Position numbers and translations under genes: made by a program | Notes under the pieces: model-generated | Seen by the model: only the letters and a program-made list of their open reading frames with translations | The model's database searches: none | What the model was told of the DNA's origin: nothing | Origin: a virus | Taxonomy: Duplodnaviria; Caudoviricetes | Virus record (IMG/VR): IMGVR_UViG_2561511197_000003 | Span: 2,976-66,975 of that record | Direction: 5' to 3' (one strand) | DNA: 64,000 nt | Shown here: positions 13,073-57,316 of the stretch, piece after piece | Numbering within the stretch: the first letter of the stretch is position 1 | Layout: the number at the start of each line of letters is the position of its first letter

Positions 13073-13149
13073 TGGGACAAAAGAGCGGATTCGAACCGCT
13101 GACCTCCGGAAATGGCAATCCGGTATTCTACCACTGAACTACAATCGTC
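13073..13149 (-). tRNA. Atypical tRNA-Gly(GCC)-like gene with 8-nt anticodon loop and encoded CCA
   Basis: D arm GTTC-AGTGGTA-GAAT; anticodon arm CCGGA-TTGCCATT-TCCGG; T arm AGCGG-TTCGAAT-CCGCT. Acceptor stem has two U-U mismatches. Confidence 0.65.
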
Positions 13150-13223
13150 ATCCACCTCCCGTTTCGCGGAGTCGTCTCGCGCTTCGTTCGCCCATCGACT
13201 GGGCTTCTCGTTCTAAAAATGTG

Positions 13224-13310
13224 CGGGCGATGAAGGGCTCGAACCTCCGACCTCACGTTTGGGGTGGCTGACTTCCCAAACATGCGCTCTACCATCTGAG
13301 CTAAACTCCC
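13224..13310 (-). tRNA. tRNA-like gene (GGG anticodon) with a 14-nt insertion at position 37/38
   Basis: D arm GCTC-AGATGGTA-GAGC and T arm GGAGG-TTCGAGC-CCTTC are canonical. The anticodon arm is 31 nt instead of 17. Confidence 0.65.
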
Positions 13311-14120: not shown

Positions 14121-14468
14121 CTATTCCGGGTCGCTTTTTTTACGCCGCCGCCCCCCGGTATCCTCGCCATAACTGATCCACTCCGGGTTAACCAGGTACG
14201 TTCCCTTCTGCCCTTTATTTAGTAAGCCTTCCCGCTTGAGCATCCCCAGGTAGCGATAGATCGTAGACTCTTCCAGATCGTATAACTGCTTCAATGCTGT
14301 TCTCGCTGGACCGGTGTTGCTCCACTCCCCTGTGGCCCGGTTGAAGGTGGCAATGATGTAGCTGTAGAGGTGCGTCTGGCCCATGTGTTTGCACTTGCTA
14401 ACCCAGGTCGTCGTGCCTCCGTAGACCTTCATTTTTACCCAGTAACGTAGTTCGGTTTTCTCTTGCAT
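14121..14468 (-). CDS. Winged-HTH protein (RepL-like)
   Basis: STIYRYLGMLKREGLL...GTYLVNPEWISYG, followed by a basic tail. Confidence 0.6.
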   Translation of the reverse strand: MQEKTELRYWVKMKVYGGTTTWVSKCKHMGQTHLYSYIIATFNRATGEWSNTGPARTALKQLYDLEESTIYRYLGMLKREGLLNKGQKGTYLVNPEWISYGEDTGGRRRKKSDPE

Positions 14469-14875: not shown

Positions 14876-15385
14876 TCAGGGAATGGCCAGCACCACAGGC
14901 AGGAACACATCAGGGCTGAGGTAGTATTCATCTGGATTTTGGGAACGAGCAATCAGGTTCATGCTTACCAGTCGGCTGATACTGGTGCTGACCTGCTGAC
15001 TCACGCCAACGTGCTGACGTAATACGGTCCTGGCTACGCATGAACGCCCTGTACTGTGGTCATAGTTGGCTCCTAATACCAGCAACAGCCGTATATCCGC
15101 ATGACGCAACGAAGTGAGTAAAGCAAGGGTGGAGTCATTGGGTGCATAGATCGTTGCTCTACGCTCATTTGTGGGGCTCACAAACGGGTTTTGCTTGTAT
15201 CTGAGTGGGTGACGGTTCGCTTGTGCCACTGTATTCACTGGATTGGGTTCTACAGCCACAGTATAATTGTGCTGATTCCCAACGAATATACAGGCTGTCT
15301 GTGCTTCATCGTGTAGGATAGGGCTGTAAACAGTGTGGTGGATAGCCCACCTTATTTTTTCACACCCTTGACAACGCCTGAACAC
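14876..15385 (-). CDS. Second winged-HTH protein (RepL-like C-terminus); start uncertain
   Basis: VGVSQQVSTSISRLVSMNLIAR...EYYLSPDVF. Confidence 0.5.
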   Translation of the reverse strand: MFRRCQGCEKIRWAIHHTVYSPILHDEAQTACIFVGNQHNYTVAVEPNPVNTVAQANRHPLRYKQNPFVSPTNERRATIYAPNDSTLALLTSLRHADIRLLLVLGANYDHSTGRSCVARTVLRQHVGVSQQVSTSISRLVSMNLIARSQNPDEYYLSPDVFLPVVLAIP

Positions 15386-15528
15386 CCTACTCGTTTTGCC
15401 AATCCTACCACCTGATAATGGCCCACAGTTATCATGATAATTTTACTATTTTATGTTATCAAATAATTATACTTTTTAAAGAATATTAGCCTTTGTAAGC
15501 CTTTTTTATTGCATCTTTCTAATAGCCT

Positions 15529-15561
15529 ATTGCTTTATGTCCCACATGGGACATACCTTTG
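15529..15561 (+). promoter_or_regulatory. Bacteroidota sigma-A-type promoter with overlapping palindromic operator
   Basis: -7 box TACCTTTG (15554-15561, consensus TAnnTTTG), upstream TTG and an AT-rich tract. Perfect inverted repeat ATGTCCCA-CA-TGGGACAT at 15537-15554. Confidence 0.75.
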
Positions 15562-15567
15562 ATGCAA

Positions 15568-15812
15568 GCAAACGGGGAAACGCCCTGAACGACCACAAAT
15601 TAACCTTCATTCATACAACAGCATCAGCCTAGCGTAACGGAGTGGGACCGGCACCATAAAAGCCGGAGACGTAATGCCCTGACGTGATTCAGGGGGCGGT
15701 CGGTTGAAATACCTGACCTACGGGAGACAAACCCAGCCTTAAACGAAGCTCGCCACTGAACGGCGCATGAAAGGCAACAGCGGACATATCAACCGTTGGC
15801 GATAGCAAACCA
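15568..15812 (+). ncRNA. Candidate structured non-coding RNA (unassigned)
   Basis: No ORF of 60 aa or more. Serial hairpins: CCGGC/GCCGG, CCCTGA/TCAGGG, GGTCGGT/ACCTGACC, GCCTT/AAGGC enclosing CGCC/GGCG, and CAGCGG/CCGTTG. Confidence 0.55.
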
Positions 15813-15814
15813 TG

Positions 15815-15899
15815 AGCGACTGTAATGCAGCTAGAAAAGTAGAATTCTACTTTCTCTAACGGTCTCAAGCCCGAACCAAATGCAGATGAGAAGTCAGCT
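15815..15899 (+). ncRNA. Twister ribozyme (type P1)
   Basis: P1 GACT/AGTC; TAATGCAGC; P3 hairpin; CGGTCTCAAGCCCG (P4/L4); TGCA-GA; pseudoknot TCTC/GAGA. Predicted cut at 15823/15824. Confidence 0.88.
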
Positions 15900-15927
15900 T
15901 AACACACTAACCAGAGTGAGCATCCAC

Positions 15928-16167
15928 ATGAAACAGACATTCGGACAGTGGCAGAATACGGTCGATATGGAAGTCCGTAGCCACTTAGGAACTCAGGCCT
16001 CATGCATAGGCATCTACACCTATGGCTACAATGACGTAGCAAAACGCAATGACCTTGCCCCTCACCCGATGGGGGAGCCTGACCAAGCCCACAAAAAGGG
16101 CATTCAGGCAAAGCAATACGCCGTTCATATCGCCACTGTACTGATAAACGCCTGTTGGTGCAACTAG
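15928..16167 (+). CDS. First early protein, hypothetical
   Basis: ATG at 15928 (MKQTFGQW), just after the ribozyme. Confidence 0.6.
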   Translation: MKQTFGQWQNTVDMEVRSHLGTQASCIGIYTYGYNDVAKRNDLAPHPMGEPDQAHKKGIQAKQYAVHIATVLINACWCN

Positions 16168-16169
16168 CT

Positions 16170-16316
16170 ATGACTGGAAGGCAAGCCATCGAAAAGATAC
16201 AGGCTCTGACTGGCTGTATCGTCTACAACCTTCTACCCGCTGACGAAGCGGGTTTTGTGTATCTGTACACGACCAATGATTACGAAACATTCAGACTAAT
16301 TGACCTAAAGCCATGA
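16170..16316 (+). CDS. 48-aa hypothetical protein (below the ORF-track cutoff)
   Basis: MTGRQAIEKIQALTGC...LIDLKP; ATGA overlap with the next gene. Confidence 0.6.
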   Translation: MTGRQAIEKIQALTGCIVYNLLPADEAGFVYLYTTNDYETFRLIDLKP

Positions 16317-21108: not shown

Positions 21109-21974
21109 TTACGACACAAACGAAAAACACCCTGTTGGCTGGCCTGTTGGCTATGGTCAGACACCTTAGCCAGCACCCATTCATGGGGCTACCTGCCCCC
21201 GACCGGATTAGCGCCACCAACTTGATTAACGTCAGGGAGTTGAGCAAATTGATGCTCAACGGTTGGAGTGCCGAATACGCCCTCCGCATAACGCCAGTGG
21301 TCAATGATCAGCAATATCTGCACAGTTCATTGCACTGGACGTTTCCGCAAGCCTACTACAGCATCCTGTTCACCGCGCGCGCGCTGCTACTGATGCGGGG
21401 CTGTTCTGTCAGCAACGACGAGTTAGTAGCCAGAAAAGTGGCCAGCATGGTAGTGAGTGGACTCTACCCGCAAGGCTTAAACTACTACCTGACGGGCACC
21501 CCCCACGATTACAACGCCAAACGGCTACAGGGCGGGGCGGCGTTGTTTTCGGTGCTGACCCAAACGCGCGACAAACAGCTTAAAAAACAAGGCAATCAGG
21601 TTCAGACCAACCCCAAAACGGCAATGCGGTCACCGCGCACCGGGGAAGTATTAGATAAGCTGGGACCGGAACACTATAAGGCACTGGCTGACCAGACCGG
21701 TCCGACGTGCTTCTTCAACGTGCTGCACCGGCTGCGTATTTCCAGCAACCAGCCGAACCCGGACGTACTGACCACCGACGAGTTGGATGTGCGCGAACTA
21801 CACGCCTGTCTGGTCGAGCTGGTCAACCGAATCAATCAGGTACACGAGGCCTATCTAGCCAAGGCGCTCGGCCTTGATAACTACCAGACGCTGGTGGCGG
21901 GGTTACCGGGCTACCTGAACGAATCCTTTGTCAACGAACGACTCAACACCCTTATCCCCATTCTGGCCAAATGA
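21105..21974 (+). CDS. HEPN-like protein
   Basis: QAYYSILFTARALL and LHRLRISSNQ resemble HEPN motifs, but the catalytic Rx4-6H is not intact. Confidence 0.5.
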   Translation: MITTQTKNTLLAGLLAMVRHLSQHPFMGLPAPDRISATNLINVRELSKLMLNGWSAEYALRITPVVNDQQYLHSSLHWTFPQAYYSILFTARALLLMRGCSVSNDELVARKVASMVVSGLYPQGLNYYLTGTPHDYNAKRLQGGAALFSVLTQTRDKQLKKQGNQVQTNPKTAMRSPRTGEVLDKLGPEHYKALADQTGPTCFFNVLHRLRISSNQPNPDVLTTDELDVRELHACLVELVNRINQVHEAYLAKALGLDNYQTLVAGLPGYLNESFVNERLNTLIPILAK

Positions 21975-22495
21975 ACTCAGAAACCAACACCAACACGCTC
22001 GACATTCTGACCCAGCCCATTCAACCCGAAGAAATTGAGTGGCGGGTTCAGATGCAGACCAAAACCGGCAAAATCATCGTCGTCCCCTACATCACCAACC
22101 GCTGCGTGATGGAGCGATTCGACCGGCAGTTTGGTTGGGCCAACTGGCAGAATGAAATTACCGAGATTCAGGGCGGGTTTCTGTGCAAAGTGATTGTGAC
22201 CATTCCGGCCACCGACACTACGCCAGCCCAAACGCTGTTCAAAATGGACGGGGCCAGCCGCACCGACATCGAACCGGTGAAAGGCGGGATTTCGGATGCT
22301 ATGAAGCGGTGCGCGGTTCAGTTCGGGCTGGGCCGTTCGCTCTATAACTACCCGCGCGTGATGATTGACACGCCCGACAAGTTCATTCCTGATTGGGCCA
22401 GCCAGCAGTTAGACGTACTGGTGAAGAAGATTAACGACGGTAGTTACCGGGGCGGTGATATGGTCGTGCTAAAAGCCTCTTATGCCAAATCATGA
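21971..22495 (+). CDS. Rad52/22 (Sak-like) single-strand annealing protein
   Basis: IEWRVQ...YITNRCVMERFD...GWANW...KGGISDAMKRCAVQFGLGRSLY. Confidence 0.88.
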   Translation: MNSETNTNTLDILTQPIQPEEIEWRVQMQTKTGKIIVVPYITNRCVMERFDRQFGWANWQNEITEIQGGFLCKVIVTIPATDTTPAQTLFKMDGASRTDIEPVKGGISDAMKRCAVQFGLGRSLYNYPRVMIDTPDKFIPDWASQQLDVLVKKINDGSYRGGDMVVLKASYAKS

Positions 22496-22823: not shown

Positions 22824-24038
22824 ATGAGCCAACTCGACTTATTCACGCCTGCCCTTACCGATGGTGAATTGCCACCCGTTGCCCTGACGCCCGAAATTGA
22901 ATCGTTGCTGGCCAAGAATGCCCCCGTAGCGATTGGGGTAAGTGGTGGCAAGGATTCAGGCGCTGCGGTTTGGGCTGTGGTCAACCACCTCAACCAGATC
23001 GGCCACACCGGCCCGCGCCTGCTGATTCACGCCGATCTTGGCCGAATCGAGTGGGCGGATTCGCTGCCGATCTGTCAGCAACTGGCCGATCTGTTTGGGC
23101 TGGAACTGGTCGTTGTGCGTCGGCCTGCTGGTGGCATGGTGGAGCGGTGGATGAGTCGATGGGATGGCAATTGCACCCGTTATGCCGATCTGGCCTGCGT
23201 CAAACTGATTATGCCGTGGTCAAGCCCAGCCAATCGGTTCTGCACATCGGAGTTGAAAACGGCGATCATCAGCCGTGAACTGACCCGCCGCTTTCCCGGC
23301 CAGCGCATTGTGTCGGTGTCAGGGATTCGTCGGCAGGAAAGCAGTAAGCGCGCGCAAAAGCCCATCTGTTCCGAGCAAGCTCGACTGACAGTAAAAACGC
23401 TGGGTACGTCGGGCGTAGACTGGAATGCCATTATCGAGTGGAAGCTGGACCACGTATGGAACTGCCACAAGTGGCACAACCTGCCCATCCACGAGGCTTA
23501 CAGTACCTACAATATGACGCGGGTAAGCTGCTGCTTCTGCATCATGTCGTCCCTGCCCGATCTGCTGCGGTCAGCGGGCTGCGAAGCCAATCAGGACGTA
23601 TACCGCGAACTGGTCGATCTGGAAATTGCCTCGACCTACGCCTTCCACGAAGATACCTGGCTTGGCGACGTGGCCCCGCACCTGCTGACCGATGAACAAC
23701 GAACAGCCCTGAGTGGAGCCAAATACGCCGCTCGTCGGCGTGAACTGGCCGAATCCCGCATTCCTGAACATCTACTCTTTACGGAAGGCTGGCCAACGCG
23801 GATGCCCACCTACGACGAGGCGGTACTGCTGGCTGAGGTTCGGCAGGAAGTAGCCGACACGGTGGGCCTGACTATCGGTTTCACCGACCCGGCCTCTATC
23901 CTGCAACGCTACGCCGAATTGATGGCCGAGCGGGCTGAAAAGCAATTCTTAGCCGACTGGACCGAAGCCAAACGCGAGTTAAAAGCCCTGAACAAACGAC
24001 TCAAAGAAGCTTATGAAGAAGCCAATCAAACAGTATAA
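22824..24038 (+). CDS. PAPS-reductase-family (PP-loop, Fe-S) protein
   Basis: Motifs VSGGKDS, RFCTSELK, GIRRQESSKRA and RVSCCFC; N-terminal QLDLF. Confidence 0.85.
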   Translation: MSQLDLFTPALTDGELPPVALTPEIESLLAKNAPVAIGVSGGKDSGAAVWAVVNHLNQIGHTGPRLLIHADLGRIEWADSLPICQQLADLFGLELVVVRRPAGGMVERWMSRWDGNCTRYADLACVKLIMPWSSPANRFCTSELKTAIISRELTRRFPGQRIVSVSGIRRQESSKRAQKPICSEQARLTVKTLGTSGVDWNAIIEWKLDHVWNCHKWHNLPIHEAYSTYNMTRVSCCFCIMSSLPDLLRSAGCEANQDVYRELVDLEIASTYAFHEDTWLGDVAPHLLTDEQRTALSGAKYAARRRELAESRIPEHLLFTEGWPTRMPTYDEAVLLAEVRQEVADTVGLTIGFTDPASILQRYAELMAERAEKQFLADWTEAKRELKALNKRLKEAYEEANQTV

Positions 24039-24842: not shown

Positions 24843-25958
24843 ATGAAATTCATTGTCTCATCTTCGGTTCTTCTCAAGAACCTACTGAACCTAAGCGGCG
24901 TGATCGCCGCCACTCCCATCGTGCCCGTCCTCGAAAACGTCCTGCTGCGGATTGAGGATGGTCTGATTACCGTTACGGCGTCTGATTTGCAGCTAACCAT
25001 GACCGTACAGGTTCCGGTGGATGCCTCCGCCGATGGCTCGGTTTGCATACCGGCCAAGTTGCTGCTCGATGTGCTCAAAAGCCTGCCTGAGCAGCCCATC
25101 ACCATCCATATCAACGCTAAAACCTTTGCCACTGAAATCCTGACGGATAACGGACGTTTCAAACTATCGGGCCAGAATCCAATCGACTACCCCAAACTGC
25201 CCAAGGTGGCCGCCATTACCACGGTTGAACTTCCATCGGGTACGCTACTGGATGCCATTACCCACACCGCCTTTGCGTGTAGTAACGACGATCTGAAAGC
25301 GGCTCAGACTGGCGTATATGCCCTGTTCGCTCCATCAGGTACAACGTTCTACGCCACCGATGGCCACAAACTCGCGCGCTACACCCGCACCGACGTACAG
25401 GCCCTTACCGAAAGTTCGTTCATCATACCCCGAAAAGCGATGGCCCAACTAAAAACGGCCCTTAGCGAAGGGGTTCCGGTGACGCTGGAAGCCAACCAAT
25501 CCCATGCTTCCTTTTCGTTTGGCTCGACGCAGCTCATTACCCGGCTGATCGACGAGGTATACCCCGGCGTTGAGGCGATGATTCCGACGACCAACACCAA
25601 TGATTTAGTTATAGGCCGCGCCGATCTGGTCAACTCGTTGAAGCGAACGATGATCTGCGCCAACCGCACGACGCACCAGATCAGACTGTCGTTGAAGAAA
25701 AACACGTTGACAATCTCAGCGGAAGACCTCGACTACGCCAATGAGGCCAGTGAAGTACTGCTTTGCGAGTACGAGGGCGACGATATGGAGATTGGTTTTA
25801 ACGCTAAAATTCTCACTGATCTGGCCACTACGCTGTCAGCAAAGATGGTCACGCTGTCGATGTCCACCTCAAACCGACCCGCGCTGCTCACTCCGGTCGA
25901 TAAGGACGAACACGAGGCCATTCTGATGCTCATTATGCCCTTGCAATTGAACGTGTAG
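24843..25958 (+). CDS. dnaN: DNA polymerase III beta sliding clamp
   Basis: MKFIVSSSVLLK...VTASDL...ATDGHKL...IGFNAK...LIMP; 371 aa, Bacteroidota-type. Confidence 0.95.
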   Translation: MKFIVSSSVLLKNLLNLSGVIAATPIVPVLENVLLRIEDGLITVTASDLQLTMTVQVPVDASADGSVCIPAKLLLDVLKSLPEQPITIHINAKTFATEILTDNGRFKLSGQNPIDYPKLPKVAAITTVELPSGTLLDAITHTAFACSNDDLKAAQTGVYALFAPSGTTFYATDGHKLARYTRTDVQALTESSFIIPRKAMAQLKTALSEGVPVTLEANQSHASFSFGSTQLITRLIDEVYPGVEAMIPTTNTNDLVIGRADLVNSLKRTMICANRTTHQIRLSLKKNTLTISAEDLDYANEASEVLLCEYEGDDMEIGFNAKILTDLATTLSAKMVTLSMSTSNRPALLTPVDKDEHEAILMLIMPLQLNV

Positions 25959-26026: not shown

Positions 26027-26794
26027 ATGACGTTTTTTCAACAACTCGCCGCCCTGAATCTGGTCGGCACCCTCAATTTTTCGGTAACGAAAGTGGGCGA
26101 CAAGATGACCGTATCGGTTCGGCTCGATAACCCATCCTGCGGCGATGCCGCGCGCAATCAGATTCGGCCCCTTACGTCCACTGGCACCCCTGTTGAACTT
26201 GATGCCGGTTGGTTTGACGCGATCACCAAGCCGATGCAATCCGCATCGGGATTGATGGTCGATATGGAAACCCATCAGAAGTCACTCGACAAAGCGCGGC
26301 AGGATTCAGCGATGAATAAGTCGAACGGCACCAAATCGACTACGCCTACCCCTGCCTCAAGTGCAGCTAGTACCCCTGCCAAACCGACCACGACGGTAAT
26401 CTCCGCTGTCGATAAAAAGACGCAGGTGTACATGGATGCCATGCAGAAGGTCGATAAGCTACGGGAGGAAGGCCGGTACATGGACGCGCTGTCCGAGTTG
26501 CCCAAGAGTAAGGATTACCCCAACAACAAGATTCTGGAAAAGCGACGTACCTGGCTGGCTAATATGGCAATGGGCGGGGTGCTGATTCCTGATCCGTGGC
26601 CGATTGATCCCGCCACCGAGAAACCCGCTGCGGCAACAGCAACGCCCGAAACTCCGGCACCAGCACCAGCCCCCACCGTCGAGGCCGGGCCAGTGGCGAC
26701 CGATAATCCGGCAGATGCGCCTGACGAGTCAGCCGACGACGACAAAGAGCCGGAGGAAAATCTGGACTCACCCCTTGTCGAAGAAACCATTTAA
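26027..26794 (+). CDS. PRTRC system protein E
   Basis: MTFFQQL...PLTSTGTPVELDAGWFDAITKP with a low-complexity tail; first gene of the cassette. Confidence 0.85.
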   Translation: MTFFQQLAALNLVGTLNFSVTKVGDKMTVSVRLDNPSCGDAARNQIRPLTSTGTPVELDAGWFDAITKPMQSASGLMVDMETHQKSLDKARQDSAMNKSNGTKSTTPTPASSAASTPAKPTTTVISAVDKKTQVYMDAMQKVDKLREEGRYMDALSELPKSKDYPNNKILEKRRTWLANMAMGGVLIPDPWPIDPATEKPAAATATPETPAPAPAPTVEAGPVATDNPADAPDESADDDKEPEENLDSPLVEETI

Positions 26795-26818
26795 TCACCT
26801 TTTTTTCAACGCAAAGCG

Positions 26819-27037
26819 ATGTTAGTAAACACTGATTTAGTCCGAAAATTTGAGTTCAAAAAGAACAACGAAACGATTGTAATCGACGACCCCAACCCTG
26901 ATTTGAGTACCGGGGCCGTGCAGAACCATTTGGCTGGGCAATACCCCGAACTGCTCACCGCCAAGCTCAAAGGGCCGGAAATTAAGAATGACGCCTTTGT
27001 CTACACGTTTGAAACGACAATGGGTACCAAAGGCTAA
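26819..27037 (+). CDS. PRTRC system protein C (ubiquitin-like)
   Basis: DPNPDLS...YPELLTA...GTKG C-terminus. Confidence 0.9.
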   Translation: MLVNTDLVRKFEFKKNNETIVIDDPNPDLSTGAVQNHLAGQYPELLTAKLKGPEIKNDAFVYTFETTMGTKG

Positions 27038-27150
27038 TTGCCCCTGACTAATCAACCCTGATTGAAACCAATGAAACGCAGCCAAAAAGCGGCAGCGCGG
27101 ACACCCGCAGCGGGTGTCCGCGTGATTGCCCAAAAACCCGACTATACAGT

Positions 27151-28344
27151 ATGCGCACTGCACAATCACCTCGGCGATCTACTCGCTCGGTTCAACCAAC
27201 TTCAGGACGCCGCCACCGTCAATCGCCTGCACCCCCAGTCCCAACCATTAGACCTGCTGGCCCCGCCTTTCTGACGCAGCCCATTTTACCTATCCAGTTC
27301 CAATCAGATCGCATTCAGGATAGTTATGGCCGGTTTTACAAGAAGTCCGGTCCAGACGATCAGGCCAAAGAGGTCGCCGAATATTATGCTTCACTGGATC
27401 ATCTGGCTAGCCTATATAACTTTCAACCGCGCAACTGTCGGGATATGGCTTACCCGATGAATATCGGATTGAGCTTTATAGCGGCTCGTCAGCAGCTAAA
27501 AGCGATCAAACCTGACCTGACGCTAGTACTGGTGGCTCAATCTTACAAAGACGAAAAAAAGTACCGTGCCACATTGGCTACGGTGCAGGCAGAAGATACA
27601 GATATATCGCTCTACAACGTACCGGTTCGCCCCTACCAACGCATGATCGGAGATCGGCGGCAACGTCAGCGATTGAGATTACTAGACAGCCTGTTTGCCT
27701 TTCTGTATCGCCGGGTTGCCTTCCCATATTGTGGGCCTGACGACTCAAGCTACTTTGATGACATACTAAGCTATACCATCGACGAAGATGGGATATATGC
27801 ATCAGAGCGCGACGCTGAGGAAGAATACGGTGATCACTACAAAGCGGCGAAGCGTAAAGTTTTCGATATACGTCGGCTGTGTTTACAGAGCAAGAAGCGC
27901 TTCAATCATGAGTATCACGTACAGCAACTCAGTCAACGGGTCAATTCATTCAAACCAAAATCAGAGCTTGATCAAGACCTCTTGATCGCCGCTCAGAAAC
28001 TGGTGGAAGTTGAGTGTCATTTCCCGCACCATTCGTTTAAGATGGCAACTGACAACCACCATCTTGAGATTAAAGACCGGGCGGAGGGTACCATTTTCGT
28101 TGATCAAATTGCAACATTCGTCTGGTCAGATAACGACGAATTCTATAGCCTTTACACGCAGTTTCTCGATGACGAGATGAGTAGTGGCTGTGATCAGGAA
28201 CCACTGCAATCTGTACAGGTCTTTGACTCACCGCAAGCCAAAGACATCCACGCTGACTATCAAGAATATTACCAACTACTGCTGGACGCCGTCGGCGATC
28301 TAGGTGCAGTACTATCCCGAATGGATCATGGAAAATGTGAATAA
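27151..28344 (+). CDS. PRTRC cassette protein (protein F position)
   Basis: 397 aa between proteins C and B; start uncertain. Confidence 0.6.
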   Translation: MRTAQSPRRSTRSVQPTSGRRHRQSPAPPVPTIRPAGPAFLTQPILPIQFQSDRIQDSYGRFYKKSGPDDQAKEVAEYYASLDHLASLYNFQPRNCRDMAYPMNIGLSFIAARQQLKAIKPDLTLVLVAQSYKDEKKYRATLATVQAEDTDISLYNVPVRPYQRMIGDRRQRQRLRLLDSLFAFLYRRVAFPYCGPDDSSYFDDILSYTIDEDGIYASERDAEEEYGDHYKAAKRKVFDIRRLCLQSKKRFNHEYHVQQLSQRVNSFKPKSELDQDLLIAAQKLVEVECHFPHHSFKMATDNHHLEIKDRAEGTIFVDQIATFVWSDNDEFYSLYTQFLDDEMSSGCDQEPLQSVQVFDSPQAKDIHADYQEYYQLLLDAVGDLGAVLSRMDHGKCE

Positions 28345-29074
28345 ACTGTTTCTGGATTTCGCTATCCCCAAATTTATCCTGTTGTTCTACCAGCAGCCGA
28401 ATAGCTACCAACAAGATCAAGACGATGACGGATCATTCTATGTCGAATCCTGCGACATAGACCCTGTAACGGGTCTGATGAGGAATCACCACCCACTGGC
28501 TGTGGAAGAATCGCAGGCACTGGGCAAACGTCTGAACGCCTCGCATGACCGAATTACCGGCTTTCTGCTGCCCAAAGGGCTTTTGCCAGAAAACGTATTG
28601 TACCTAAACCCACGCGGGGAAGGGAAAGTAATCTGGTACACCAAACCGGGGAAACGTACCCTGTATTTTAGCGATTATCGTAAAATTAAGGATGGAACAG
28701 CCCATGTACCTGGGCTACTTTGGTGCGCTACTGCCACCACCTTGCGTCTATTCGCCCTCAAGCCGGGTGTTGTCGAAGGCCGACCGGCCTCTAACACCCA
28801 GTTATACTACGCCCCCTTTTACAATACAAATTCGGCTGGGGAAGTGTGCCAGGGCGATGTTGACATCGACGTGACGGGGGAGTCTACGCTTGAGGATTTT
28901 ATCACAGGATGGGAGCGGTTTTACTTCGATAGTCGCTTTTCCCACCTGAGTGGCAATCTACCCATTAAAGGGAATCTGGATGAACTGTGGAACAGCCTGA
29001 TCGGTACAGAAACGCCATTCCCCCACGACTTAATGATCTCGACGAAACTCACACTAAAAGACCTACTGGCATGA
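28328..29074 (+). CDS. PRTRC system protein B (prokaryotic E2 family D)
   Basis: LLPENVL, VIWYT, VPGLLW, LYYAPFYN...VCQG, WERFYFDSRFSH. Confidence 0.88.
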   Translation: MENVNKLFLDFAIPKFILLFYQQPNSYQQDQDDDGSFYVESCDIDPVTGLMRNHHPLAVEESQALGKRLNASHDRITGFLLPKGLLPENVLYLNPRGEGKVIWYTKPGKRTLYFSDYRKIKDGTAHVPGLLWCATATTLRLFALKPGVVEGRPASNTQLYYAPFYNTNSAGEVCQGDVDIDVTGESTLEDFITGWERFYFDSRFSHLSGNLPIKGNLDELWNSLIGTETPFPHDLMISTKLTLKDLLA

Positions 29075-29862
29075 CTTCGGTACATCTTACTGCTAAATAC
29101 CTGATTAGCCCTCAAAACCCCATTACAGTCAACCTTATCGGCGCTGGCGGCACCGGTAGTCAGGTGTTGACTGCACTGGCCCGAATGAATGTAGCCATGC
29201 TGGCGCTTGGCCACCCCGGTCTGTATGTATGTGTATGGGACCACGATACGGTCAGTCGCGCCAACATGGGCCGACAGTTGTTTGCTCAGTGCGAGGTTGG
29301 CCAGCACAAGGCGGTAGCTCTGATTAACCGCACAAACCGGTTTTTCGGCACCAATTGGAAAGCGATTGCTCACAAGTACGAGAAGGCTAATTTATGGCAA
29401 AGCCCCTTCGCGCATGGGTCGGCGAATGTGACCATTAGCTGCGTCGATACTGTGGCTGCCCGTTTCCAGATTGCCGATACGCTCAAAACCCTTAACGTTC
29501 ATGAGGACCACCGCGACCGCCCCTATTACTGGATGGATTTTGGGAATAGCCTCACCAGCGGGCAGGTCATGCTCTCAACTGTTGGCAAGCACAAGCAACC
29601 GGACTCCAAGAAATTCAAGACGGTAGCGCATCTTCCGTTCATCACCGACGAGTACGCCGACGCGCTGCGGAACACAGTCGAGACAAACGAACCCTCCTGC
29701 TCACTGGCCGAAGCCTTGGAGCGCCAGGATTTATTCATCAACCCGACGCTGGCGCAAATGGGCTGCAAACTGCTGTGGAACCTGTTTCGGGAAGGTATGA
29801 CACCCAACCGGGGTTTCTTCCTGAATCTGGCTGACTTCCGCTCGATGCCCTTGCCGGTATGA
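29071..29862 (+). CDS. PRTRC system ThiF/E1-like protein
   Basis: IGAGGTGS, DHDTVSRANMGRQ, CVD, DFGN, PSCSLAEALERQDLFIN. Confidence 0.92.
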   Translation: MTSVHLTAKYLISPQNPITVNLIGAGGTGSQVLTALARMNVAMLALGHPGLYVCVWDHDTVSRANMGRQLFAQCEVGQHKAVALINRTNRFFGTNWKAIAHKYEKANLWQSPFAHGSANVTISCVDTVAARFQIADTLKTLNVHEDHRDRPYYWMDFGNSLTSGQVMLSTVGKHKQPDSKKFKTVAHLPFITDEYADALRNTVETNEPSCSLAEALERQDLFINPTLAQMGCKLLWNLFREGMTPNRGFFLNLADFRSMPLPV

Positions 29863-34656: not shown

Positions 34657-37600
34657 TTAATCGTTTGTCAGCTGGCCACGGACCACGCGGGTCACTGTGC
34701 TAGGCAGGCCTACCCACTTCGAGACAAAATCAGTCGATTTTCGCACGAACGTATCCCCCGCCTGAGCGGCTTTCTTCTCATCCTCTTCGGTCATGTACCG
34801 GCCTGCTGCCAGCACCGCATCGACGCCCTGCTGCATGTTCGACAGACTGGGCACCTCGTACAGCTGCTCATTGCCACCAACACCATCGACCTTATTGATG
34901 GCGTACTCGACGAACAACGTACCCAGCCCGGGGAACGTACCTGACACGTTACGCAGCGAGTCGAACATCACGCGTTCGGTCAGCTTATCGGCTTCGGGCG
35001 GTTCCCCACCCGACAGCATGGCCATGATCACCGACGTACCCGCCGACACGGCGCCGACGTACACGGCGTTGGCCAGCACTCCGTAGCCCAGCGTCTGCAG
35101 GAGTTTGGCGCGCGCGGCTTTGGCCTCCGGCGTTCCCGGTGTGGCCTTCGTGTAGCCGATCATCGCCCGAATCACCAGCCCCGCAATTTTCTGCTGCTGG
35201 CTGCTGTACATGCCCAGCATTCGGGTAAAGAACTGCTCGGAGAGTTGCATCGGGGTACGTTCGGCCAGCGAATCCGTGTTATAGGTTTCGCTTACCACCC
35301 GCTCGGTCAGGTGGGCCACCCGATCCCACCACGCATCGCTGTTCTGCTGTAGCCCTTCGGCCGAGGCCTGCAGCTGCGCCGCCTGCACGTAATACAGGAT
35401 GGGCGCCCGGTCAGCCCGGCGCATGGCCGACATAAGGCGTTCCCCCGCGAAACTGTCGTACTTCCTGAGCAGCTTCTGCGCGTTGCTGAGCGTCGCGCTG
35501 TTGAGGCCCAAATCGTCAAAACTGACGTCACCGACGTGCTGCTGATTGGAGTCGAGTAGCCGGTTGATTACCGCGCCGAAGCGCCGTAGCTGCTTGGCCT
35601 TGGCCGCTTCGTCCATGCCCTGACCCAGCAACGCCTCGATGTAGGGCCGCTCGACTGTATCGCTCTCACTAATCAGCCCACCGTGAAGCCCCTGATCGGA
35701 GCCGTCGGCGCGTACCGACGCCCCTACACCCGCATCGCGGTATGCCCCGGCGGTTAGCTTGGCCAGCAGGCCCAGCGCCTGCGGATCGCGCAAATGCTGA
35801 TCCTCAATAATGCCCTGCCCCATCGCCGAGGCGGCCGTGCCCAGCTGTTTGGCAGGCAGGCCCAGGTTGAGCGAGAAAATCGAATTCGTGAACCGGCGCA
35901 TACCCCGCTCGACGCTCGTCAGGCCGGGGTTGTCCTGCCGAACCCGCATCATGCGCTCCCGGTAGCCACGCAGTACTTCGTATTCGCGCGTCAGGTAGCC
36001 CACCAGTCGCGCTTTCTGCGGCCCCTGGTACTTGTTTTCGATGGCGTCGCGCAGGTGCATGACGTTTTCCGACAACCGACCGTATTCCAGCAGATCAGCG
36101 ACCTCCTGTTCGTAGCGGATCATCGTTTGCAGCGGGTTGCCCAGCACGATGCCCTTCGCTTCACGCGACCGCGCAATCAACCGGCCCGACTTATCGTAGA
36201 GCTTCATGCGGCCCTGCGCCTCAGCGCGCGCGTTGGCATCCCCGCCCGTCACCCGAATGGGGTAATAGAACGTCTGGCGGGGCCGGTTTGCCGCCCGTCT
36301 GGCCCGGTTCTCGTCGCGCCGGTCGCGGGCTTCCGCCAGCCACTCCTGCGCGCCGGGCGCCAACGCCGGGTCGATGCCGGCACCCGCTTCGGCAGGCTCG
36401 ATGAGTCGAGGTGATTTACCACCGGTACGTTCGCCTACCCGCTCGAAGGGTTCGCCCGGTTTGAGCGCATTGTTTTCTTCTTCGAGCAGATCCGCTACCT
36501 CGTTGACGTTGAAAAACGAAATCAGCGCCTCGTAGCCTTCCACCTCCCCGGTTTTGGCGTCGTTACCCTCCACAAAGCGCGACAGCAGGCGATTGTATTC
36601 CGCCCGGGGTAACATCAACGTGTCGAGCCGATCGCGCGCGGCATCGTAATACTGGCCACCGTGGTCGAGTTTTTTCGACAACGTACCATCGGCATCGCGC
36701 TCGTAGAGTTCATTGGGACGCGGCTCAGCGTCGAACACGTGAGTTATGCCACCCGTGGGTGACGACCCCTGCTGGGTTTCAGCCAACGCAACCGCTTCCA
36801 TCACCGTCAGGAGCGGCACCTGCTTTTCGACCAGCACCACCTCACCCGTATTGGGATTGAAGTCATACGACTGCACCCCGATCAGCTGCTCCTCGAAGGG
36901 AGCCAGTAGCCGGGCGGCCGTAGAAAGCCGGTCCTGCAGGTACGTTTTCGCCGTACCCGCGCGACGTGATCCTTCGAGCTGCGGTTCATGGATCAGGCGT
37001 TTGATGCTGCCCTTCGTGTCGTCGATCAGATCGGCGAACGTAATCAGGTTGGTCCACGACTTGAGCCAGTCTGAGACAAAGTTGGTCAGCCGACCAACGT
37101 ACCCAGTATCATCACTGCGCTGGCCAAAGCCTGTACTCACTGCATTGGCCAGCGTTGCCTGATCAAGCGTCAGCACCTGCCCGTTCGCCAGATGGTAATG
37201 CGTCTGCGGATGGGTATAGGTGAGCTTTTGGGGTGAGGTCAACTCAAAGCCCGTCTGCTCGGCGATCTGTTTGATGTACGACTTATCGGCGTCGGTGTAG
37301 TTGACGGGGGACATTTCCCATAAATCGCGCGAAACAGCCGGTTGCTTCAGCCCCTGCACGGTGAGTTGCGTATTGGTCACCGGCGGGTTGCGCAGCTGCT
37401 GCTCGGCCACCGATAGCAGGTTGGCCAGCGTCGTGGGTTCGGCCCCCAGCACACTGTTGGCAGACGGGGCGGTCGGCTCAAGGGTCGAGGGGGCCGGATC
37501 AGGCGCCAACTGGAATTGGGGTACGTTGCTGGGGGGCGCAGGCTGAGCGCGATTACCCGGCCCTTCCATCAACCCCAACACCTGCCCGGCCCAACGCGCC

Positions 37601-40600
37601 AGCTTCGCATCGGCTAGTTTCTCATTCGAGGTCCAGCCGATCGCTTTTCCAATTTTGGCAAACAGTTCGTCGAGCCACAGCCGGAACGCCGATTTACGGC
37701 CCGACACTTTAAACTGTTCGCCCTTGTCGCCGATCGCCGTTTCGAGCGCTTCGATTTCCAGTTCGGGAGTGGACAGCGTTTTGTAATAGCTGTCGGTACG
37801 CAACCGGGCGAAGTAGCCTGAATCGCGCACCAGCGCCACGCCTTTGGTGTACAGATCGGGAAACTTGGTTCGCGCCGCTTCGGCCCACAGGCCGCCGAAC
37901 TCGTGAAAGACGGAATTCAGGTTTGCCTCGGGCGAGAAATACACCTTGCCCTGCCAGCGGAAGGCGAGCGGTCGACGAGTGGCAAGGCGAGCCCTGTCTG
38001 CTGGCTGCAGTCGGCTCAGGCTTTCCTGCAAGGCCTGCCCGTACGCGGCCGGATCGGTGATGGCGTCCACGCCGAAGGCCTGCGCCAGTCGCGCGACAGC
38101 CTGCCCAATGGGGGCAGTTGACCGGGCAGGTACGTTCCCCTGCTCGGGAGCCAGTTGGAAAAACGGGCTATCCGGCTCGGCAAACGGGTTGGAGGTATCG
38201 CCCAGCGAGTCCATCATGCTAGCCAGCCCGGCATCTTCCTGCGTGGCCGACGTACCTGGCGCGGTCAGGCCCGTAACCTGCTGGTAAAACTGCGCGGCTT
38301 TTTCGGCGGTCTGGAACTGGAAACCGGGGATGGCTCCTGATCCCTGAAACCGCGAGTAGTAGCCGCCCAGCGACTTGGCCTTATCCAGCGCGGCGTTGTA
38401 CTGCTCAGTACTGAGCCGCCCGTTAATGGGCACCACGAACGTGTCCCGTTGATTTTTGGCGTGAAACCCTTTGACGGGTTCTTTCAACGGTGCGTTTTCC
38501 GCTGTAACAGAGGAAGCCGCAGCGGTCTGCGGTGCAACAACCGGGACGGCAGCAGCAGCCTGAGCTGCTGGCTGGGCGACTGGCTGCGCTGGCAGTACCG
38601 ACGAGCGCGTTGATAAATCCACCCGCCCAGCATTTACCCGCTGTACGTCGGCTGAGGTGATCGTTGGCCGTTCAGGCACCTCGATCGTTTCCAACTCATC
38701 AAACAGTTCATTGATGTCTTTGACGTCGCGCAGATCAATTTCTTCCACCGACCCCGGATTGGCATCAGGCTGCAATTTATCAAGCACCAGCACCTGCGTG
38801 TTGACTGCCGTACCCGCCCGCCCGAACGTACTGCCGGGCAACAATATGCGCGCTGTCAAATGAACACTACTGGTAAGACGCCCCAGTTTTGGGGGCGTAT
38901 TCACTTCCTCCAACCACTTGTCAAACTTAGTATTGAAGGCGCCGACTGGTACCAGTGCCACCACCCGGCTACCGACGACCGAGTGTTGCTCAATCGCCTT
39001 TTTGACGTGCTCCAGTGCCGTTTTACCGGCCTGCCCATACGGCGGGTTCATGACCGTGACCTGGTACTTGTTCACCGGGTTATGATCCTCGTAAGCCTCG
39101 TTGAGCTTACGGCCATCGGTCACCAGCGATACTTTACTGAACAGTTCCGACGACGGTTCAATGACCGTTAGACTGGCATCTTCCGGCACCCAGCGGGCAA
39201 TGGCACCGTGGCCAGCCGAAGGCTCGTTTACGCGGTCGCCTGTTTTGATGTTACCCCACTCGACCATCTTCATGCCCAGCGGTTCAGGCGTGGCAAAGTA
39301 ATCGACGCCTTCGTAGGCTTTGGTTTTGGCGGTACGTTTGAGTTGTGCGAAGTAGTAGGTTTTTGCCTGATCCCACGGCGAAATCGGCTTGGTGAAACTG
39401 CGGTCAAATGCCTTACCGCCCGTACCATCCTTCTCAGAGGGTACGTACTCGGTGGTTGCCTCGAAGCCTTCAATGAACGCCTGCTTCAACCCACGGGCCA
39501 TTTCACCCATGCCCAAATTCTCAGCGGTACCGGCCCGGCCAGCAATCGTATCAGCAAAAGCCCGACGCTCCCAGTTGGTGCCCGTATTGAAATACACGAA
39601 CATACTGTTGGAGTCGGGATGCTGGCCAGTCCGGTAAATGCGCCCTTCCTGTTGAATCGAGCGGGTCGGTTGCGTGGGCAGGCCTAGGTTCACCAGCACG
39701 CGCGGATGCCTACCCGTCGTATCGTGGCCCGACCAACCCGCGTTGGCCGCCGCATTGACCAGAATGATGTTGGCCTCGGGCTTGGTGTCGTCGTTGAAGT
39801 TTTTGACGGTGGCGGTTTTAGCCGTTTTGCTCATGCCTCCCTTTAGGCGAGCCGCCTGCGGGAAGGCTTCGCCCAACGTGTCAAGGGGTGCCCCGTAATC
39901 AGCGGCGTTGATCGCGTAGAGGTCCGGTCGACGTTCGTAGAACTCCCGAATCAGCGTGCGAATCGAAATCGATTTTTGGCTACCATACGGGCCAGTCATT
40001 ACGTTGCCTTCGGGCAAATCGCCGTTTTCATTTTCGAAATGGAACGGCGCAAAGCCGCCCCCTTCCGTGTAATCGTAGAACACGACGACTTTCTTACCCT
40101 GATCCAGCCACTGTTGGATGTACGGTATGGCTTCCTTGGCCTTAATGGCTTCCAGTAACCGCTGGCGCTGAAGGTAATTGAACCGCTTTTCCAGCAGATC
40201 GATTAGCCCCGTATACCGCTTGTTATCGCCTTCCCGAACGAAGGCCAAACCCTCGTCGATCAACGTACCCACAGCTGACGGGGTGAGCGCAAACAAACGC
40301 TGATAGTCTGAATCAATATCCAGTACGCGGGCGCTGGCCACGCCTTCTTTTTGAAGCCAACCGTTGAAATTGCGCTCCATCAGCGACACGTCGACCGACA
40401 CATCGGGCTGCGTCAGGCGGTTATACCGCATCCGGTAGCCGAAATGCTGCACCATGAAGGCCTCATAGCCCGAGGGTACGTTGTAGGCGGTACTGTCGGA
40501 TTTTCCGTAGCTGAACAAATAGCCATTGGCCCACTGGATTGTTTCGCGGTAGGCAAAGGGCGTGGCCGATAGAAACACCGCGCGCGGACGGACGGCGCCC

Positions 40601-43600
40601 TGATTTTCTTTAATCAGGGCTTCATTCGCCTCCAGGTAGTTGTCCCACTCCCGTTCTTTCAGCGATCGTTCCTCGGAGAGTGCATCCAGTTCGGGTTTTA
40701 ACAGTTCCCGTTGATAAGCCGTATCCCGGCTTCTGAACTGGTCGTCAATCTCTCTGATGCGGGCCCGAATTTCGGAGAGCCGGGCAAACAACTCTTCGTG
40801 CTCCACCATCGTCCGATTCCAGGCCGAATCAGGGTGATAGGTATGCACCTGAAACGCTTTTAGGGCACCGGTCACGTCGGCCGACGACGACTGCATGAGG
40901 TTGTGCGCTTCATCGGCCAGCAGCAGATCAAACCTACGGGTAGCCAGCGCGTTATTACCGGCAAAATTGGCGTAGGTCGTTACATTGATCCCCGACCCGG
41001 CATCTTTCATGTCGTCGAGCGCGCGAATGGTCAGCCCCAGCGCAGGTGCTGACATGACCCACTCGTTCATTACGCTGACATTGGGCACGATCACCAGTGC
41101 GCTGGTTTTACCCTGCTTGGCAAAGCGTTTGATGATGCCCAGCCCCAAGAAGGTCTTGCCGGTGCCGGTGCCGTTGGTAAACAGCACTCCGTACCCGTCG
41201 GGCTTGGACAATCGCGCTTCGGCAAACTGCACATCTTCGCGCTGGCCATCCATCAGGTAGGGCAACGTGGCGTCAATGTTTGCGCGGTTGCCAACGACAA
41301 CCTCAATGGATTCGGCCTGCTGCTGAAGGGCTAGCTTTTCTGCACGAGTAAGTGAACGGCCTTCCTGAGCAGCTGCGATAGCTCGCTGCTCTCCGAGTCG
41401 GTCAGGCTGAATTCCTGCGTCGCCAAGCGCAGGGCTTCCGCTACGGTCGTCACTTCGGGCAGTGCTGTCCGCAGGGAATAAGCTTCCGAACTCGTTATAA
41501 ATTGGGTTAGCGCGTGATGTTCTACCAGTAGCGGCAGGATCTGCTGATACGCGCTGATCACCCGGGCGCTGTGTCCCTGACTCGTCAACCAGTCGGATTC
41601 CTTCGCCAACGCCTGGCTCAAGGCTTCCGGCGTCGGCTGGTTGAACATCGTTAGTGCCCACTGGCTGAGTAGTGGTTGTTCGTGGGCTATCTGGTTCCAC
41701 ACGGTTAGCGGTACCTGCGTCATTGGGTTGTGTATTTACATCATCAAGGGTAACGGCCCGCACCGTGCGACCGTCATCCATTTTATCAAACGTATCGTCG
41801 TCGACGGTGTTCTGGTAGGCACCGTAAACAGATTTCAGCGCCGCCAAGTCGTTTTCGGTCACCGGGCCCTGCAGTTTCACAAAGTCCCGAACCACCGCCG
41901 TAAACTTGTGTACACCCTGCTGAAATTTCACCGACAGGTATTCGGCACCGAGGGCCAGAAGCTCGGGGTCGGCAAACGGATTGCTCGACAGATTGCCCCG
42001 CATCTGACGCAGCTTTTCCTTTAACCGGGCGGCCAGATCAGCCTCACGCTGGGCCAGTTCGTCGAGTTTATTGACGGGGGCTGGCGTGTCGGTTTGAGCC
42101 GGAAGTGAGTCAGTAGTCGCGTTTTGTGGGACAGAATTGCCATTTACTGCGACAGTTGACCCGTTTTCTGCAACAGATGACCCAAACAGCGCGGTTTGTT
42201 GCGTGCTGGCGGCAACGGCCTGCTCGATCGCGCGCAGCTTATTGGCCTGGGCGGTTTTCTGCCGCTCGACGAGTGCTGCGCGCTGCTGTTTGGCCCGATC
42301 AATCGCCTGACGGGCGGCAGCTTCCGCCTCCAGTCCGGTGGTGTTACCAGCAAACAGATCAGATTGGGTCGCAGCTTTGGGATCGGCCGCAAACAGATCA
42401 CCCGTCTGCAGCCGGTTGCGGTTTTCGCGTTCAAGCCGGGCAATGGTGCGGTCGGCTGCATCGATCTCGCGTTGCAGGTTCGCCAGTTCAATGTCGAAGG
42501 GAGCCGTGGCCTCGGCCGTGCGCGGATCAACTACCGCCTCAGCCGCAATGGCTTCGTCAATTTCTTGGAGCAACGTGGCCGCCTGTAACCCGATGTCGGC
42601 GAGTTGTTCCTGCTGATCAGCCGGGCTTTCGTTCCTCGATTCCTGCGCACTAAGGGGCAGATACGAGGCAGTAGCGATCCGGCGATTACCCGCTTGGTCT
42701 GTGTATGCATACGAAAAGCCAGGAAGGTTCTTAGCTGAATACGCCGTAGCTACTTTACTACCCGGACTATCTTCCTTAATCTCATAGAAACCGGCCGCTT
42801 CCCAATTACCATCAACCAGTATTTCGGAAACAATACCAACGACACGCCCAGTCTTGCGTGTTTTTACACTACTGACAACGTACCGCTGTTCCTCATCAAC
42901 TTGAAATAGATCGCCTTTCTGAACCGTGGCTAGCAACCAATTAGCAATAGTTGGCCCATCATTGGTTGCAACGACGTCCTCATAACTGCTTTGTGTTGTT
43001 ACTGTCGGCTGATCACTTGGCGCGACCGAGTTAGTTTCGTTAACTAGGGTGTCTGTTCCGGCGCTTGGTTGTCCGACGGCTTCGGCAGCATTTTCGAGGT
43101 CCGCGACCGCAGACTCAAGAGCGACGAGAGTTTGTCCGACGGTGGTACCGCCCCCGGCCCCTGACTCAGTCGGGCTGTTAGTAAGGCCTCCGTCAGCTGC
43201 TGGCGCGGGCTTTTGTTGTTGGATGGCTTCATAGATGGGAAGAACACCGGCATGGCCAACGGCCAGATCGGATAAGAAACGGTTAAGTAAAACTAAACGT
43301 TCGGGCGTGTAACCCATTAATCCTGAGTTCACGAATGAGTAAACGGCAGAAAACTCATCCAGCAACGGGGCTAGATCGTAGCCCGCCTGCGAGTCCCAGT
43401 AACCCAGCGTGCGCATTTCTTTGAGCAGCGCCTCGACTTCCTCATCGGAATAGCCGTTGACCAGGTCGAGTACGTCGCGGGTTTCGGCGGCCAGCAGATC
43501 GGGGTTTTCCTGCCATTGGGCCGCTACCTCGGGGTCGAGTTCAGCCAGCACGTCGGCCTGCATCTGGGCCGCCGCCTCATCGGCCGCGCCTTCGTCGGCA

Positions 43601-56717: not shown

Positions 56718-56719
56718 GG

Positions 56720-57316
56720 TTATTCGTGATAGCCGATGTAGCGGCGGATGGTCCGGTCGGCGGCTTCGCCTCTGGGCGTCAGGGCGGCGCGCGCGCGACC
56801 GATCCAAGTGTCGGCGCTGCGTTGCAGGCTGCTGCGTTCACCGAAGCGGGGGTGTTGCGGCTGGGTGCCCAGCACTTCGGCCAGACACAGGTCGTAGGCC
56901 GCTGGAAAGCAGGCCTCGGGTATCAGCGCCTGCTCGTCGGCATCGGTCTGGAGCCGGTAGCCGCGCACGTAGAGGGCCGCGCCAGTGAAATACGGGAAGG
57001 TAACGCCGTAGGGATCACGCTGCATCGTCAGCACGTGCAGGGGCCCCAGCTGATCGGTCGGCCCCTCGACCGCCGTCCAGTCGGCGCCGTTAAGCGACGC
57101 GTCGGTAATGGTCAGAATTGAATCGGCCAGTTCAATACGCCGGTTGGTGGGCAGGTTGACGGGCTCCACGAAGCGCACGCCCACCCGCTCGTAACCGATC
57201 CGGCGCCACAGGCGGGTACGTAACGTGTTGATCACCCGCACGCGGAAGGCCTGCACGTCGCCGACCGACACGTCCTGTTGCAGCTGATCGAGTAAATCGT
57301 CGATCGTATAAGTCAT
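56720..57316 (-). CDS. Putative tail ring protein
   Basis: 198 aa immediately upstream of the muzzle; LYVRGY...D...ALIPE pattern. Confidence 0.55.
   Translation of the reverse strand: MTYTIDDLLDQLQQDVSVGDVQAFRVRVINTLRTRLWRRIGYERVGVRFVEPVNLPTNRRIELADSILTITDASLNGADWTAVEGPTDQLGPLHVLTMQRDPYGVTFPYFTGAALYVRGYRLQTDADEQALIPEACFPAAYDLCLAEVLGTQPQHPRFGERSSLQRSADTWIGRARAALTPRGEAADRTIRRYIGYHE

Follow-up and report, generated by a model that had tools for sequence, protein, structure and literature searches.

In an integrated mobile element, we have found a predicted promoter that adjoins a candidate operator; a long non-coding leader follows, and a twister-type ribozyme motif stands before the first rightward gene. 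Based on our results, we consider it about an even bet (probability 0.5) that a twister ribozyme would here process the 5' end of the rightward operon mRNA, the piece of about 256 nt that is cut off being a by-product. The parts of this reading differ in strength: the motif is probably derived from a twister, and its chance of cleaving is put somewhat above even. The outline of the original prediction, in which promoter, candidate operator, leader and twister-type motif precede the first rightward gene, is supported as a reading of the sequence. All positions refer to the window, by which we mean the whole 64,000-nt stretch of DNA that was analysed, and the features are collected in Table 1.

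Table 1. Features of the promoter-ribozyme region and of the surrounding element, in window coordinates
Feature	Position	Strand	Remark
Intergenic region	15386-15927		between leftward ORF 14876-15385 and first ORF of long rightward block
Perfect 9-2-9 palindrome TATGTCCCA-CA-TGGGACATA	15536..15555	.	candidate operator
Bacteroidota-type -7 box TACCTTTG	15554..15561	+	fits TAnnTTTG
5' leader fragment, ~256-258 nt	15566..15823	+	released if cut; non-coding, no detectable special structure
Twister-P1-type ribozyme motif	15813..15901	+	Rfam RF03160 match and folding
Predicted scissile U/A linkage	15823..15824	+	alignment to RF03160
P1	15813-15821 with 15892-15901		9 bp, A15896 bulged
L1			GUAA on 5' side, GAUGAGA on 3' side
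P2 (UGCA/UGCA)	15826-15829 with 15881-15884		4 bp
P3	15832-15842 with 15847-15858		11 bp
P4	15860-15862 with 15871-15873		3 bp
L4			UCUCAAGC; 7/8 positions equal Rfam consensus UCCCAAGC
T1	15864-15866 with 15888-15890		C15864-G15890, U15865-A15889, C15866-G15888
T2	15830-15831 with 15869-15870		G15830-C15870, C15831-G15869
First rightward gene, 79 aa	15928..16167	+	G174 homology from M15928; frame 1 scores as coding
Terminator-like hairpin	16235..16253	+	directly after first gene; consensus scan only
Rad52/22	21971-22495	rightward	
PAPS-reductase-like protein	22824-24038	rightward	
DNA polymerase III beta clamp	24843-25958	rightward	
PRTRC protein E	26027-26794	rightward	
ThiF-family protein	28987-29862	rightward	
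4187-aa ORF	34657-47220	minus	ResIII and Strawberry-notch helicase; methyltransferase-type PHROG matches
1348-aa muzzle-like protein	52761-56807	minus	PF25731 (Crassvirus muzzle, distant), 114 bits, and C-terminal domain

A scan of the window at Rfam gathering thresholds returned three tRNAs only; it omits the twister motif because the alignment to RF03160 (twister-P1), which covers 15819-15893, scores 33.6 bits, half of the gathering score of 67.2. The E-values of this match are small: 2e-5 when 651 nt were compared with all families, 0.002 when the 64-kb window was compared with all 4227 families, and 5e-5 when the 6.9-Mb genome was searched with the single family. With the limit set at E 1, the scan of the whole window gave it as the sole non-tRNA match, and it was the sole match in the genome at E up to 10. 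When 151 family genomes were scanned with RF03160, one other match appeared at E 0.01 (G147, 25.5 bits); we regard it as noise, since it lies antisense within an 806-aa ORF and has a broken P4. The claim of a full twister is upheld for its location and for the predicted cut site U15823/A15824, and falls short in score. For an Infernal/Rfam scan, the original prediction had pointed to twister-P1 and RAGATH motifs; the former is recovered at small E-values and not at the gathering threshold, and none of the latter was found in the leader.

The type-P1 twister is a self-cleaving ribozyme, reportedly described by Roth et al. in 2014. Passages of PMC6154101 describe the twister structures 4OJI and 4RGE, the pairing of L4 with L1 and with L2 that forms T1 and T2, the U-A step that is the scissile bond, and a P3 found in 78% of twisters; in the corresponding passages of PMC11662667, T1 is named PK2 and T2 is named PK1. 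Our motif resembles the type-P1 twister in its order P1-L1-P2-L2-P3-P4-L4 (P1, P2 and P4 of the type, with the optional P3), in a UAA at the cut site (U15823, A15824, A15825), in the pseudoknot predicted between L4 and L2 and, if a shifted register is allowed, that between L4 and L1, and in an L4 that is nearly identical (UCUCAAGC here, UCCCAAGC there). L2 carries the GC, three A's precede the 3' strand of P2, and directly after that strand comes the general-base G15885, which together with A15886 opens the 3' strand of L1. The catalytic residues are thus all in place, as A15824, A15825 and G15885. With both pseudoknots counted, 32 of the 32 pairs in the full model are standard.

The single change in L4, from C to U, is matched by a change from G to A in L1, so that T1 reads C-G, U-A, C-G. 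The complement that L4 needs for T1 would be present by chance in a random 5-mer with p = 0.046, and the covariance model gives no credit for the pairs of T1 and T2. The three Watson-Crick pairs of T1 need an extra U15887 after G15885-A15886 (the Rfam register has two mismatches and a wobble), and once T1 is in register an unpaired G15822 and an unpaired A15891 adjoin P1. The 9-bp P1 emerged from unconstrained folding, whereas the Rfam alignment pairs P1 badly. Both the minimum free energy (MFE) fold and the centroid fold of 15810-15904 contain P1, P2 and P3 in twister order, and these three helices are also kept when the 360-nt leader is folded as a whole by MFE. The stretch 15810-15904 has a folding z of -1.96, with 6 of 200 shuffles as stable. 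The canonical nested twister fold is at -21.2 kcal/mol against -21.5 for the MFE, which departs from it solely by a local hairpin that replaces the 3-bp P4.

The motif differs from the type-P1 twister in scoring half of the gathering threshold, in the middle pair of T1 (U-A here, C-G there), in the extra U15887, in the unpaired G15822 and A15891, in a P4 of three pairs, and in that no relatives of it were found in our searches. According to passages of PMC11662667, the twister P1 is dispensable, and imperfections in P1, P2 and P4, weak P4 stems and insertions in L1 are broadly tolerated; mismatches in the pseudoknots are harmful, as are changes of the general acid A, the next A and the general base G, all of which matter.

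The sequence TAnnTTTG is the -7 box consensus of Bacteroidota sigma-A promoters. Across the genome, it is enriched about 14-fold in the interval 31-40 nt ahead of start codons (over 3735 long ORFs, this bin ahead of the first ATG contains 92 boxes, where the background per bin is 6.4), and SD-like cores precede just 27 of these 3735 ORFs; we take this peak and the near-lack of SD cores to be Bacteroidota expression signals. Counted by itself in the window, TAnnTTTG shows no enrichment (18 observed, 22.4 expected). The box at 15554 is the sole perfect or one-mismatch -7 box on the + strand of 15500-15960 and the sole perfect one on that strand from 13506 to 33525, which makes it the leading candidate for a main promoter serving all of the rightward block; no further canonical -7 box stands downstream of the ribozyme before the first gene. 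From the promoters of its own genome, no -33 element at a fixed position could be derived. Transcription is predicted to start at about 15566-15568, and the box lies 374 nt from the start codon, with a non-coding leader of about 360 nt in between. In this genome, -7 boxes are found mainly 20-60 nt ahead of start codons and fall to background level past about 150 nt; relative to this spacing, it is in length, and only in length, that the leader is unusual.

The TAnnTTTG box had been described as overlapped by an inverted repeat, and so it is: TACCTTTG at 15554-15561 has 2 nt in common with the right arm of the palindrome, which lies on the upstream side of the box. The repeat itself is real and perfect, with arms (TATGTCCCA at 15536-15544 and TGGGACATA at 15547-15555) that make it 9-2-9 instead of the 8-2-8 claimed. 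It occurs once in the window when 3 mismatches are permitted, and 0 of 100 shuffles matched. A repressor may bind it, hence our term candidate operator, and the promoter is probably under repressor control through it. Two ORFs, 14121-14468 and 14876-15385, are encoded divergently on the minus strand. A genome of the same genus (G008) shows 100% identity over the box and the 21 nt that follow it, and has an ORF that starts 56 nt after the start of the box. At that locus (L004 1440-1510), two copies of another palindrome, TTATGA-TT-TCATAA, stand ahead of the box, and the leader behind it is short. An identical promoter with differing candidate operators would be in keeping with regulatory modules that mobile elements interchange. 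The divergent region also has, in its A+T-rich part, a weak Rfam match, to the HTH-XRE motif (15477-15524, minus strand; 16 bits against a gathering score of 49.8, E 3.5), which is probably due to chance.

The protein of the first rightward gene was found in 2 of 401 family genomes. A search of 5.8 billion proteins (candidates of 43-139 aa) returned only the protein itself, and a two-row profile of the protein matched in 1 of 401 order genomes, its own. The homologue in the second genome (G174) is an ORF of 153 aa that is 74 residues longer at the N-terminus, the homology beginning exactly at M15928; an alternative ATG for our gene lies at 15880, within the ribozyme. Upstream of the G174 homologue, no twister was found at E up to 5. 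Directly upstream of it (L011 1-1030) there is a TnpB-like ORF with, by eye, a C-terminus of the zinc-ribbon type, and the promoter-like word TACCTTCG stands ahead of its ATG. With no perfect + strand -7 box until 33525, the 17-kb block may need read-through of the terminator-like hairpin that follows the first gene.

The element that carries these features is an integrated mobile element. Within the rightward block, a PRTRC-type cassette (26027-29862, + strand) lies beside the genes for the beta clamp, the PAPS-reductase-like protein and Rad52. Beyond 33.6 kb lies a leftward block that includes the 4187-aa ORF, the muzzle-like protein and, where the window ends, an integrase. The 4187-aa ORF is similar to giant helicase-methylase proteins known from mobile elements. 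For the 1348-aa muzzle-like protein, neither PHROG nor tblastn against 50,697 phage records gave a match, and among the ten ORFs around the switch, Pfam matched none and PHROG one. No clear virion module was identified in the element, and two window proteins used as queries found no related loci in viral contigs. To call the promoter at 15554 an early phage promoter is uncertain: the element may be a prophage or one of another kind, such as an ICE, and "early" is to be taken as "first rightward". Three tRNA genes are clustered in the window, two of which are odd (13073-13148 and 13223-13310, minus strand): ARAGORN gives one a four-letter anticodon (gcca), and in the Rfam alignment a tRNA-Pro(GGG) has an insertion of 16 nt just past the anticodon. 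These odd genes sit in a stretch of lower G+C and may belong to the element.

Taken from sequence features and their statistics, the mechanism that we propose treats use of the promoter, control by a repressor, cleavage and the consequence of cleavage as predictions. The host-type promoter at 15554, probably controlled through its candidate operator, would start the main rightward transcript of the element. This transcript would open with a non-coding leader of about 360 nt, whose last 89 nt before the first gene would be a type-P1 twister, and the ribozyme would cut between U15823 and A15824 during or soon after transcription. Twister cleavage leaves a 2',3'-cyclic phosphate and a 5'-OH. An active ribozyme would thus be expected, from established twister chemistry, to yield a 5' fragment of about 256 nt whose 3' end carries a 2',3'-cyclic phosphate; the cut would remove this fragment as a leader with a 5'-triphosphate, and the mRNA would keep a 5'-hydroxyl and a compact ribozyme fold 27 nt upstream of the start codon (15928). 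The P1 duplex between the two products is about -9.9 kcal/mol, which makes release of the 5' piece plausible. The cut may alter the stability or the translation of the mRNA and may shield it from the sequence of operator and leader. As the purpose of the predicted cut, processing of the mRNA 5' end is most likely, ahead of the making of a separate functional RNA.

The main rival to processing by an active ribozyme is that the motif resembles a twister by chance, or is a relic that has decayed and lost activity, in what would then be simply a long 5' UTR or a non-functional spacer. We hold this to be unlikely. Its case is helped by the score below the gathering score, by the extra nucleotide in the 3' strand of L1, the 3-bp P4 and the substitution in a highly conserved L4, and by an E-value that rises to about 0.2 if scaled to the whole genome and all families (our own scaling, not the output of a tool). 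It is helped as well by the motif being a single example without conservation. In blastn with 15400-16200, 6 of 101 related genomes matched, our own counted; the stretch of promoter and transcription start (29 nt) was matched in G008 alone, and the matches in four others, of 27-49 nt, lay outside the leader. Among 401 family genomes, this 29-mer occurred with up to 3 mismatches in two, G000 and G008; a 23-mer of the same stretch was found in 0 metagenome contigs, and a distant-mode blastn with 15500-15930 gave no match in phage and plasmid records. The G008 locus, with the same promoter, lacks a twister. The collection of leader homologues that the original prediction had envisaged for covariation came to nothing in genomes, phage and plasmid records or metagenome contigs, and with no homologue of the leader or of the ribozyme variant, conservation and covariation lend no support.

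A pattern for the ribozyme variant matched 28 loci, 25 of them in genome contigs and three in viral contigs. We judge all of them to be chance. The NAA-N4-GC word with 4 of 4 P2 pairs occurs in none; three (L019, L020, L026) have 3 of 4 P2 pairs at unrelated distances, and several appear to have a common conserved coding sequence. A fuller pattern gave 0 matches in viral contigs and one in metagenomes (L041), likewise a chance match, inside an open coding-like frame and devoid of P2 complementarity. The exact pattern found no second copy of the variant in one-genome-per-species representatives, viral contigs or metagenome contigs. Against a chance or dead motif stand its rank as the only non-tRNA match in the window at E up to 1 and as the best among 151 family genomes, the exact compensation in T1 of the L4 substitution, the 9-bp P1 that the Rfam alignment overlooks, and its placement on the sense strand of a non-coding leader directly before a gene.

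A different reading accepts the cut and gives its purpose to the other product: the released piece of about 256 nt would be a functional, structured non-coding RNA (acting, for example, in anti-defence as a decoy, in host takeover or in antitermination), made under repressor control and given its 3' end by self-cleavage. The leader is indeed unusually long for its own genome, and it is non-coding in all six frames. By eye, its G+C resembles that of the neighbouring genes more than that of the A+T-rich intergenic DNA just upstream. The terminator-like hairpin after the first gene makes a promoter-proximal antitermination RNA conceivable; put of phage HK022 is such an RNA, and the likeness, that of a non-coding RNA which comes first from its promoter and lies ahead of a terminator, is one of functional analogy only. 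The serial and nested hairpins that had been described for the leader are no more stable than those of shuffled sequences (z = -0.47 for 15568-15823 with 200 dinucleotide shuffles; z = -0.88 for 15560-15900, with 19 of 100 shuffles at least as stable). Three sub-windows gave z = 0.00, -1.74 and -0.23, the second of them (15640-15760) being a point in favour of a functional RNA. It was correctly stated that the leader cannot be assigned to a known family: on its + strand (15568-15812), no Rfam family, RAGATH included, matched at E up to 10. Nothing else sets the sequence apart, its longest complement elsewhere in the genome being 17 nt (E 0.12), its own genome holding no second copy, and a homologue of the leader being absent from the 101 relatives, the 401 family genomes, the phage and plasmid records and the metagenome contigs; the leader behind the related G008 promoter is short. 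The claim of a structured functional RNA of about 256 nt thus fares badly on excess stability, Rfam family, complement, second copy and homologue alike, and we regard it as improbable. That such a twister-made RNA, as the first product of the promoter, acts alone (in antitermination at 16235 or in anti-defence) would be a long shot; if true, a bacterial twister would gain a defined job in the 3'-end formation of a regulatory RNA.

It is very improbable that the leader holds a small coding gene or a remnant of one, such as the lost N-terminal half of the G174 homologue, with the RNA features incidental. The 74 additional residues of that homologue and the ORFs of 8-15 codons that visual reading finds in the leader would fit it. 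However, tblastn with the G174 protein finds nothing in the leader, its match beginning at 15928, and in bits per codon the six frames lie at -0.68 to -1.28, where the neighbouring genes lie at about 0 to +0.27. No + strand ORF of at least 20 aa starts within 15568-15823, in agreement with the original statement that the leader has no long ORF. The leader also contains ACCGUU (15792-15797), which can pair with AACGGU (15858-15863, part of repeat I2); the latter spans the 5' strand of P4, and this pairing could possibly compete with folding of the ribozyme. Two metatranscriptome runs, in which 5% of the words were present, placed no reads on the stretch and are neutral on expression.

Processing of the mRNA 5' end, our preferred reading, can be set beside what is known of other ribozymes. 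The printed examples of bacterial twisters come mostly from anaerobic Firmicutes. The host here, with its Bacteroidota-type signals, is unlike them; a passage of PMC11662667 gives the hosts of bacterial twisters as "anaerobic bacteria". Like the bacterial twisters treated in passages of PMC6765202, the motif lies near genes of mobile-element or phage type, and like bacterial hammerhead and twister ribozymes in the same source it has an intergenic or UTR site in the operon of a mobile element. For those ribozymes, the processing of polycistronic or phage-linked mRNAs into parts that differ in stability or translation has been proposed (PMC6765202, in the passages concerned), and these passages describe the biological role of bacterial twisters as still open. 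Unlike those cases, which lie between cistrons or in a 3' UTR, the motif here would be in the promoter-proximal leader of a whole operon. For the glmS ribozyme, passages of PMC6765202 likewise describe self-cleavage in a bacterial 5' leader, a 5'-OH on the coding part and an altered fate of the message, as we predict here; glmS differs in that it needs GlcN6P and has an unrelated fold, whereas nothing here points to a ligand. In a limited literature search, we found no published twister in the leader of a Bacteroidota mobile element. The motif is best described as a candidate: a sub-threshold member of the twister class in a known kind of neighbourhood, present as a single sequence without relatives.

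In conclusion, the layout consists of one host-type promoter, one candidate operator, one predicted ribozyme and then the first gene of a block of about 17-18 kb. If the motif is active, the simplicity of this layout would allow its cutting to be tied directly to the expression of the operon. An active motif would also be a variant from nature that escapes the Rfam threshold, its T1 having a U-A pair and its L1 an insertion, and it would extend twisters to a host with expression signals of the Bacteroidota type.
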